A stretch of DNA of 22,956 nucleotides from a virus (Duplodnaviria > Heunggongvirae > Uroviricota > Caudoviricetes), in the IMG/VR virus record IMGVR_UViG_3300045988_018328; one strand, given 5' to 3'. Numbering within the stretch: the stretch's first letter is position 1; every line of letters starts with the position of its first letter. Below, piece after piece: positions 18,841 through 19,530 of the stretch. The translations under genes and the position numbers were made by a program. The notes beneath the pieces were generated by a model. It was not told the origin of the DNA, made no database searches, and saw only the letters and a program-made list of their open reading frames with translations.

Positions 18841-18867
18841 ATCAATGACTCCGTACGCAATTAAATT

Positions 18868-18945
18868 ATTACCAATTTAACCACATATGATTTATTTATC
18901 GTAGATAGTTGACATTTAACGCACAAATTATTACCTTTCAGGTAA
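18868..18945. promoter_or_regulatory. Shared regulatory module, copy B: ATTACC-N6-ACCACATATG (18868-18889) plus palindrome TTACC-TTTCA-GGTAA (18931-18945), between the portal-side genes and the tRNA
   Basis: Same elements and order as at 698-765. A perfect TTGACA (18909-18914) lies between the two elements. Confidence 0.6.
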
Positions 18946-19267
18946 CTAAAGAGTTCATTCCGGTTGCTAACCTGACTGGCTTGTCGTTAAATTGAACAGG
19001 TGTAGTGAGCTTTTGTTTTGAGCAGTACGGCGTATGGCACATGCGCCGATAGCGGTCTGGATACGTTTAAGGGGCACCCTCCCTTGCTCGGGCAAACGAA
19101 CCAGGTAGCCGGAATGTGCAAGTCGAGCGGTTTTATTCCGCGCACGGGGATTCACCATCCCGGCGATTCGGTGTGACGCCTCGGAAGAGACGAGGGTACA
19201 ACGATGAGAGCATTTATGGAGCCGCGACAAAGTGTGGCGCCTTAACAGGCTAAGTGCTCTCAGCGTT

Positions 19268-19344
19268 GTGGCATTAGCTCAGTTGGACAGAGCAACCGCC
19301 TTCTAAGCGGTTGGTCGCAGGTTCGAATCCTGCATGCCACGCCA
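19268..19344 (+). tRNA. tRNA-Arg (anticodon TCT, reads AGA), phage-borne
   Basis: Folded by hand into a 77-nt cloverleaf: acceptor GTGGCAT/ATGCCAC (7 bp), D-stem GCTC/GAGC, anticodon stem ACCGC/GCGGT with loop CTTCTAA, T-stem GCAGG/CCTGC with loop TTCGAAT, discriminator G and encoded CCA. Confidence 0.9.
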
Positions 19345-19387
19345 GAATCACGCCTAAGGACCGTGATGCCAGAAGTTCCAGGTGCTT

Positions 19388-19430
19388 GGCGGTGATGGTT
19401 TCCCTTGAAGGACTATCACCGCCCTTTTTA
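19388..19430 (+). terminator. Possible intrinsic terminator downstream of the tRNA
   Basis: GGCGGTGAT...ATCACCGCC stem (9 bp, long loop) followed by CTTTTTA. Confidence 0.45.
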
Positions 19431-19506
19431 CAGCAGGACGCCATTGCGATGACTTCATGCTGTAAACCAGTACAGCCACGGAAGGCATAACTCATTGCTT
19501 CCAGTT

Positions 19507-19530
19507 CGCCCGGTTCGCCGGGCATTTTTT
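19507..19530 (+). terminator. Intrinsic terminator (second, stronger) downstream of the tRNA
   Basis: GCCCGG-ttcg-CCGGGC followed by A plus T7. Confidence 0.7.

Follow-up and report, generated by a model that had tools for sequence, protein, structure and literature searches.

A conserved pseudoknotted RNA domain heading a candidate phage RNA operon with a tRNA-Arg(UCU) and a DicF-like small RNA

The stretch of DNA studied here (22,956 nt, referred to in full as the window) belongs to a tailed virus of the class Caudoviricetes (IMG/VR record IMGVR_UViG_3300045988_018328). A preliminary description, made from its letters alone, had pointed to a tRNA-Arg(UCU) gene in a gap between late genes, preceded by a structured region of about 300 nt (18960-19267) that might encode a further RNA. 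We found that this region contains a conserved, covarying and pseudoknotted RNA domain of approximately 170 nt (19028-19195, + strand). The explanation that we favour for the whole locus, at slightly less than an even chance, is that positions 18909-19573 form one phage-borne non-coding RNA operon on the + strand, with the domain at its head acting as a cis elongation leader. The components of this explanation differ in strength. The anatomy of the locus and its homology to the lambdoid early-left 'dicF' region are, on the comparison of sequences, very probably correct; the processing scheme, carried over from the Escherichia coli K-12 homologue, is probable; the role of the domain in cis-antitermination is proposed tentatively and is open to considerable doubt. 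The operon would comprise, in order, a promoter/operator, a weak leader hairpin, the domain, a helix designated P6, the tRNA-Arg(UCU), a DicF-like small RNA (sRNA) with terminator 1, a second segment with terminator 2 and the stub of a lost gene.

As RNA, the + strand of the upstream region (60% G+C) folded better than its shuffled versions (z = -2.8); the minus strand gave z = -1.4. The proposed structure of the domain consists of five helices (P1-P5), an H-type pseudoknot formed by the P4 loop and a possible further loop-to-junction pairing. It was evaluated in alignment A2, in which no two of the 37 sequences reach 96% identity and invariant blocks alternate with covarying helices. The proposed structure left 95.7% of the alignment cells paired, versus 30-40% when the partners were slid. 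Changes on both sides were observed in 14 pairs, and the cells with double changes numbered 105 versus 30.6 in shuffles; the observed pairing values were attained in 0 of 500 shuffles. Separate counts on 95 unique sequences agreed with the covariation found in A2, and one pair of the pseudoknot was C-G in 71 and A-U in 24 of them, i.e., paired in all 95. In the possible loop-to-junction pairing of GCACAU with AUGUGC, both strands are invariant and so show no covariation. The RNA was assigned to the + strand, on which G-U pairs are frequent; read from the opposite strand, these would become A-C mismatches. A covariance model, R1, gave the window a score of 140 bits. The idea of a further RNA upstream of the tRNA was thereby borne out. 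The structured character of the region was likewise upheld, but not its extent, as the domain is directly followed by a processing-type helix (19196-19267) and there is no 300-nt leader.

The domain is previously undescribed in the searchable literature, and it is the head of a locus of known kind, a dicF-type early RNA operon with a phage tRNA, in a new setting. The covariance-model scan of the upstream region, suggested in the preliminary description, was run with Rfam 15 and returned nothing at the gathering score or at E ≤ 10, including for 19028-19195 on both strands. The Rfam search of six related loci gave no match for the domain at E ≤ 1. ARAGORN found a single tRNA in the window, with no tmRNA and no second tRNA. 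Literature searches by sequence string and by keyword did not retrieve a description of the domain.

The domain is shared by unrelated temperate phages of enterobacteria; a sensitive blastn search with 18930-19270 matched 92 phage records. They included the lambdoid phages cdtI, mEp460 and mEp390, Stx2c and Stx2a phages, P1, P7, D6 and SJ46, as well as phages of Klebsiella, Enterobacter and Salmonella. The matching stretches carried no annotation or hypothetical proteins, or else an adjoining tRNA-Arg, a ribosome-binding site (Tyrion) or an 'RNaseIII' site (epsilon15). A two-block pattern occurred in at least 120 IMG/VR contigs, with one copy per contig. Among complete E. coli genomes, 1840 of 5426 carried the domain, at 1920 chromosomal and 554 plasmid places where only the tRNA was annotated; in the reference P1 genome (NC_005856) it occupies 71023-71191, with nothing annotated. 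A complex pseudoknotted RNA is thus present in about one third of complete E. coli genomes without an Rfam family or annotation, even though E. coli prophages, P1 and Stx phages are heavily studied.

The contexts of the domain fell into several types. In 76 of 125 loci, it followed a cI-like repressor gene on the same strand at a median distance of 153 nt; in lambdoid phages the spacing behind cI is about 150 nt. In mEp460 (locus L004), reading by eye of the sequence between cI and the domain showed the terminator of cI and a palindrome-bearing, promoter-like region. The domain is thereby placed in the early-left transcript's leader; the promoter scan of these contexts made a call in locus L014 only. 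About 30 loci were epsilon15-like, as is the window. In P1-type elements, the domain lay 14 nt after a tRNA-Ile(CAT) and upstream of ban, and in P1 and P7 themselves it was truncated after P5.

The pattern used to scan the genome collection was too loose, and most of the 120 loci listed were chance matches. Among the matches listed, nine loci were kept by model R1. Eight of these come from named species of Enterobacteriaceae, and the carriers so confirmed were Kluyvera, Kosakonia, Phytobacter, Citrobacter, Superficieibacter and Escherichia whittamii. Paraburkholderia and other matches of the scan were rejected by R1. The taxonomic range of the domain is to be read as a lower bound. A full-scoring copy (156 bits) was also observed in the Stenotrophomonas phage vB_SmeS_BUCT708 (L258 2441-2597), downstream of a helix-turn-helix repressor-like gene; its conserved blocks are nearly identical to those of Klebsiella-type copies. 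Either the range extends beyond the Enterobacteriaceae, or the host assignment of this phage needs a check.

Downstream of the domain, P6 followed by GTTGTG was present in 117 of 133 loci. In the window, P6 folded at -31.6 kcal/mol (z = -4.55), and among 31 sequence variants of its strands cognate pairing averaged -20.9 kcal/mol versus -15.8 kcal/mol for non-cognate pairing. A long base-paired helix just upstream of the tRNA or cloverleaf, as expected of a dicBF-type operon, is therefore indicated by both the z-score and the cognate energies, and the K-12 sequence folds in the same way. The helix ends at a conserved junction (...GUU/GUGG), at which the tRNA-Arg(UCU) starts in 30 of 133 loci. 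Most of the other loci have at this junction a cloverleaf tRNA-like module with the same initial GTGG, a closing stem of 8-9 bp and arms at the D, anticodon and T positions. Canonical T loops were retained in some of these cloverleaves, one of which scored 39.9 bits as a tRNA with an insert. Units of a P5-like hairpin, P6 and a cloverleaf can repeat. The tRNA or tRNA-like module is then followed by a trailer hairpin, an sRNA-like terminator module and a second terminated segment (19345-19531 in the window). The tRNA had been described as inserted, an isolated gene with its own leader and two terminators; instead, it is one occupant of a set position within a modular operon of RNAs.

The tRNA itself was well formed and reads AGA, as the preliminary description had it: ARAGORN called a tRNA-Arg(tct) at 19268-19344 on the + strand, and the RF00005 score was 73.3 bits against a gathering score of 29. 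It matched E. coli K-12 argU at 64 of 77 positions, with an identical anticodon loop (CUUCUAA) and T loop and a D loop differing by one base. By these features, it is predicted to be a usable E. coli arginine tRNA, and it would supplement the decoding of AGA. This codon accounted for 6.3 per 1000 codons in the open reading frames (ORFs) of the window. Against a frequency in E. coli of about 2 per 1000 codons, AGA is about three times commoner in the phage genes. AGA and AGG were concentrated in the large tail, injection and tailspike-side genes (ORFs 3027-10006) and in small early genes; in the terminase-portal-capsid block (ORFs 13516-21807 compared), AGA was absent and only few AGG codons occurred. 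The presence of the tRNA, of TTGACA and of both terminator hairpins would also suit another reading, in which a normal phage tRNA gene has a promoter of its own, a long leader without function and a redundant pair of terminators. We regard this as highly improbable, since the supposed leader is conserved with covariation in phages devoid of any tRNA (100 of 133 loci), and the terminator modules are conserved sRNA-like units that are found after tRNA-like modules as well.

The link to K-12 was provided by the Qin prophage (L136, NC_000913.3), in which the 340 nt between ydfC and dicF hold a P6-like helix and a cloverleaf, the latter 89% identical to the module of an Stx2c phage. These elements, at L136 3175-3366 directly upstream of dicF, are unannotated; a second tRNA-like (cloverleaf-like) sequence was observed between dicF and dicB (3445-3570). 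In K-12, DicF derives from the dicBp transcript through an RNase III-dependent species of 190 nt and RNase E, and RNase III processing appears to stabilise the upstream portion of the transcript (PMC10448788). Counting 190 nt back from the 3' end of DicF, by coordinate arithmetic, places the RNase III cut approximately 9 nt before the cloverleaf, in the 3' strand of the P6-like helix. From this site we infer that host RNase III would cut the window precursor within P6, and that RNase P and RNase E would finish the ends of the tRNA, yielding separate RNAs. If this is true, the K-12 dicF region and its phage relatives constitute a modular structured-RNA operon punctuated by RNase III helices and tRNA-like folds, which offers a testable model for the maturation of DicF-type sRNAs and phage tRNAs.

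The terminator scan detected five terminator-like sites versus 1.1 expected. Both intrinsic terminators noted earlier downstream of the tRNA were found, each a hairpin with a T run; the second kept its reading, but the first is not a mere terminator, as it would form the 3' end of the DicF-like sRNA. The sRNA segment (19376-19429) was collinear with K-12 DicF (UUYCWGGUG..UUGGCGGU..ACCGCCCUUUUU) and with intermediate copies in an alignment of 28 trailer variants, and its position and collinearity, including the UUGGCGGU...ACCGCCCUUUUU terminator, are those of DicF. The copy of this module in locus L116 scored 33 bits on RF00039 (E = 0.0016). The window copy gave no match to the DicF family RF00039 at E ≤ 10, and the gathering threshold of 48 bits was not reached. 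The segment ending in terminator 2 (19430-19531) folded with z = -2.66 and is conserved before the downstream gene of both L018 and L072. Beyond it, the accessory gene of relatives is replaced in the window by 33 nt (19541-19573) with a 7-codon ORF; this slot comprises 382 nt in phiV10 (L002 2422-2803), including p03 with PF13876 (Phage_gp49_66), and in Klebsiella phage ST512-KPC3phi13.3 it has a gene with PF11195 (Tad2-like). The contents of this slot suggest an early accessory island.

At the 5' end of the operon stands a candidate promoter and operator. The perfect TTGACA announced about 350 bp upstream of the tRNA was read directly at 18909-18914, i.e., approximately 355 bp upstream, and the TACCTT hexamer retains T1, A2 and T6 of the -10 consensus. 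Across the epsilon15-like relatives (epsilon15 itself, Tyrion, L072 and a Klebsiella phage), TTGAC and the palindrome TTACCTTTCAGGTAA were invariant, and the palindrome is labelled a repressor site in the GenBank entry of epsilon15 (AY150271). The stretch of epsilon15 that matches the leader hairpin carries the annotation 'RNaseIII'.

As regards function, the domain, at the head of repressor-controlled early transcripts, would most likely act in cis on the transcribing RNA polymerase, so that a long untranslated unit with terminators could be read through to the genes beyond. Such an element would resemble put or nut in logic, while being homologous to neither. Several findings are in line with a cis leader. 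The domain is single-copy and always the first module, and in most carriers it stands just after the operators; the first protein gene is separated from it by terminators 1 and 2. The early-left genes of mEp460 begin with one that is YfdP-like and not N-like, and Q is annotated there and N is not; that first gene had been considered as a candidate N-like gene and was rejected, its product being acidic and YfdP-like. The mEp phages were collected as Nus-dependent.

A considerable body of evidence weighs against the operon with a cis-acting leader. No promoter was called at threshold for 18909-18937 by the consensus promoter scan, the leader hairpin (18944-19020) is a weak part whose fold was not better than shuffles (z = -0.17), and the processing scheme is drawn from homology only. 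In P1 and P7, Pban is 2.4 kb away from the domain, which immediately precedes ban and has no terminator after it; there is likewise no terminator after the domain in L014 and L015, and it is not promoter-proximal in L034, L085 and L102. Beyond the terminators of the window, there are only the gene stub and the converging TerL (large terminase) gene. An RNase III-type helix just downstream would sever a polymerase tether, and a pR-side counterpart is missing because each phage has one copy of the domain. Put RNA measures about 70 nt, and the domain is far larger (about 170 nt). Finally, the boxA core GCUCUU(U)A occurred in 5 of 133 loci, which is not enriched over background.

Known antitermination elements were also considered. 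At the place of the boxA core, the window has GUGCUCUCAGCG, a segment that covaries as a helix strand. Right after the domain, L085 (3352-3364) and L034 (around 12340) carry TGCTCTTTAACAA, which we take to be an exact 13-mer of the E. coli rrn boxA, beside the terminator of a convergent gene. An rrn-like boxA antitermination had been entertained as a general explanation on the strength of the exact TGCTCTTTAACAA in L085, but it was dropped because the core is rare and not enriched. Homology to put was rejected as well: with filters off, the best R1 score in HK022 24000-34000 (presumed to hold putL and putR) was 4.7 bits, and blastn with the domain region gave no HK022 match.

A close rival, possible but in our judgement unlikely, is that the domain is a stand-alone, trans-acting RNA, excised by RNase III in P6 together with 5' processing. 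Early in lytic growth it would target a conserved component of the host, for example a defence system, a ribonuclease or the machinery of translation or of tRNA. The processing-type helix and the tRNA or tRNA-like module immediately after the domain agree with excision, as does the apparent stabilisation of the upstream portion in K-12. In P1-type elements, the tRNA ending 14 nt before the domain would set its 5' end, and in L034 and L085 a terminator hairpin at once after the domain would delimit an RNA roughly 190 nt long. RNAs with a tertiary fold typically show the kind of pseudoknots and invariant single-stranded blocks seen here, and nearby slots contain host-takeover or anti-defence genes (the DicF-like sRNA; Tad2-like or gp49_66 genes). 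No phage protein co-occurred with the domain across podo-, sipho- and myovirus contexts, which therefore suggests a host partner. A free RNA, however, leaves unexplained both the expression of downstream genes past terminators 1 and 2 and the status of the domain as the single-copy first module while other modules repeat; moreover, limited literature searches found no report of a stable RNA species.

The domain might alternatively be a mere scaffold, a 5' cap-like fold that keeps RNase E or Rho off the untranslated precursor and aids the maturation of the tRNA and sRNA, with no activity of its own. We consider this quite improbable. It accords with the location of the domain at or near the 5' end in most loci and with the processing modules next after it, but 14-nt invariant blocks and a pseudoknot shared across phages with unalignable flanks exceed the needs of simple 5' protection, and the K-12 Qin prophage makes DicF without the domain.

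A broader view, to which we likewise assign a low probability, is that the 170-nt domain represents an undescribed class of functional RNA of enterobacterial temperate phages, P1 and Stx phages included, acting alone on a host machine. It would then be either a processive antiterminator or anti-Rho element that consists of RNA only and has no relation to put, or a processed RNA subverting a host nuclease or defence. Returning to the cis leader that we prefer, control of elongation by the domain would explain early-left expression in lambdoid phages that lack N; a free RNA would offer a new candidate for a part in host takeover or in anti-defence.

Table 1. Features assigned to the RNA locus, in coordinates of the window.
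Feature	Position	Strand	Basis or remarks
Promoter-like and operator candidate	18909-18945	+	TTGACA 18909-18914, 17-nt spacer, TACCTT 18932-18937, overlapping palindrome TTACCTTTCAGGTAA at 18931-18945
Leader hairpin, degenerate copy of a P6-type helix	18944-19020	+	AACTAAAGAGTTCATT ... AGTGAGCTTTTGTTTTG; sequence likeness to P6 strands
Conserved pseudoknotted RNA domain	19028-19195	+	Five helices and H-type pseudoknot, about 170 nt
P1	19028-19048	+	Domain helix
Possible further (loop-to-junction) pairing	19037-19042 with 19114-19119	+	GCACAU with AUGUGC; invariant
P2	19053-19060 with 19101-19111	+	Domain helix
P3	19122-19124 with 19162-19164	+	Domain helix
P4	19147-19161	+	Domain helix
Pseudoknot	P4 loop with 19170-19173	+	CACC with GGTG; covariation
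P5	19179-19195	+	Domain helix
P6, helix of 15-17 bp closing a branched variable insert	19196-19267	+	CAACGAUGAGAGCAUUU / AAGUGCUCUCAGCGUUG; candidate RNase III site
tRNA-Arg(UCU), CCA encoded	19268-19344	+	ARAGORN; Rfam RF00005
Trailer hairpin	19347-19367	+	AUCACG-N9-CGUGAU; conserved behind the tRNA, or behind the tRNA-like module, across many unrelated loci
DicF-like sRNA ending in terminator 1	19376-19429	+	Hairpin 19388-19423 and U run; terminator scan
Second structured RNA segment ending in terminator 2	19430-19531	+	Hairpin 19508-19523 and U7; terminator scan
Ribosome-binding site AAGGTG and 7-codon ORF stub (19544-19570)	19532-19573	+	Slot of an accessory gene in relatives
Bidirectional terminator-like hairpin shared with the TerL gene end	19593-19608	.	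Scan, both strands; annotated terminator in phiV10

The non-coding gap that houses these features (18841-19660) measures 820 bp, so that its presence was rightly noted and its size, given as roughly 1 kb, is somewhat smaller. The flanking genes are all on the minus strand and comprise TerL (19661-21136), a small gp3-like ORF of 68 aa (18634-18840) and the portal gene (16940-18619), identified according to the annotation of the close relatives phiV10, phiv142-3 and epsilon15; the tRNA, on the + strand, is indeed opposite to these late genes. The same arrangement was found at 97-99% identity in phiV10, phiv142-3, TL-2011b and the O157 typing phages. As these are free phage genomes with identical phage-gene flanks, the locus is phage-borne, in agreement with the earlier reading, and is therefore not an attachment (att) junction.

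The same flanks argue against an att or recombination junction as the origin of the 300-nt region, which, together with the possibility that the region codes for protein (minus-strand ORFs 18967-19230 or 19274-19525, or the plus-strand ORF 19018-19176), has a practically negligible chance of being correct. ORFs of 52-87 aa are present in the region, and hypothetical proteins are annotated across it in phiV10 and mEp460. However, the Pfam search of three local ORFs yielded no match, indels between homologues are not multiples of three and the base-pair changes are compensatory, and the phiV10p04 ORF runs antisense over the tRNA. Hypothetical coding sequences in four deposited records (L002 2155-2406, phiV10p04; L001 2155-2223; L004 2443-2811, mEp460_037; L012 2078-2320) cover, or run antisense to, the tRNA and the conserved domain and are apparently wrong; in the phiv142-3 record, the tRNA is annotated on the wrong strand. 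Spurious coding sequences over these RNAs have thus been brought to light in several phage records.

Two further observations concern other parts of the window. The sequence AATTAAATTATTACCAATTTAACCACATATGATTTATTTA (18841-18908), between the start codon of the gp3-like gene and TTGACA, was almost invariant in epsilon15-like phages and may serve as a site that regulates the late genes of the minus strand. Above the gathering score, Rfam identified isrK (1181-1256, 77.9 bits) and C4 antisense RNA (1281-1366, 77.7 bits) on the + strand, i.e., an antisense immunity module of the P1/P7 type in an epsilon15-like phage; an isrK/C4 pair also adjoins the antirepressor region of mEp460 (L004 206-394).

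The locus can be compared with several known systems. ROOL and GOLLD are large ornate RNAs that are carried by prophages and often adjoin tRNAs. The domain is similarly a complex structured RNA, but it has no Rfam match to either, is much smaller and was found only in Enterobacteriaceae phages and one phage deposited under a Stenotrophomonas host. Maturation punctuated by tRNAs is exemplified by the spacer tRNAs between the RNase III stems of rRNA operons, by MALAT1-mascRNA and by the T4 tRNA cluster, which includes the stable 'species 1/2' RNAs. As in these examples, a larger structured RNA has a tRNA, or a fold like one, directly next to it, and its end could be set by tRNA-processing enzymes; unlike them, the window system shows no homology to the others, and its cleavage is predicted only.

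Like HK022 put and the nut sites of lambda and rrn, the domain of most lambdoid carriers stands close behind the operators, where the early-left transcript begins, and has terminators downstream; in addition, its P5 loop (GAAGAGA) loosely resembles a boxB loop. The window differs from put and nut in carrying GCTCTCAG and not the boxA core. With put, the likeness is one of position only, and resistance to terminators in cis would be, for the domain, a proposal by analogy.

Other phage tRNAs of the same kind as the tRNA-Arg(UCU) are argN and argO of Stx phages and the T4 tRNA-Arg. The window gene is like phage tRNA-Arg(UCU) genes in being an AGA-decoding tRNA of a temperate coliphage whose use of AGA exceeds that of the host (at the host frequency given above). 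It is unlike them in its base-for-base fusion to a conserved helix, at the 3' strand, and in being interchangeable with non-tRNA cloverleaves in relatives.

The nearest counterpart of the locus is the dicBF operon of K-12. It differs in having ydfABC where the domain-carrying loci have the 170-nt domain, a cloverleaf in place of the true tRNA, and dicB thereafter, whereas the window unit is set among the late genes of a podovirus and has an sRNA that the Rfam model of DicF does not recognise. Processing by RNase III as well as by RNase E has been shown experimentally in K-12 only (PMC10448788). Both systems share a repressor-controlled promoter and a long polycistronic transcript, in which a P6-type helix of about 20 bp is followed by a cloverleaf and then by a DicF-type sRNA with an intrinsic terminator.

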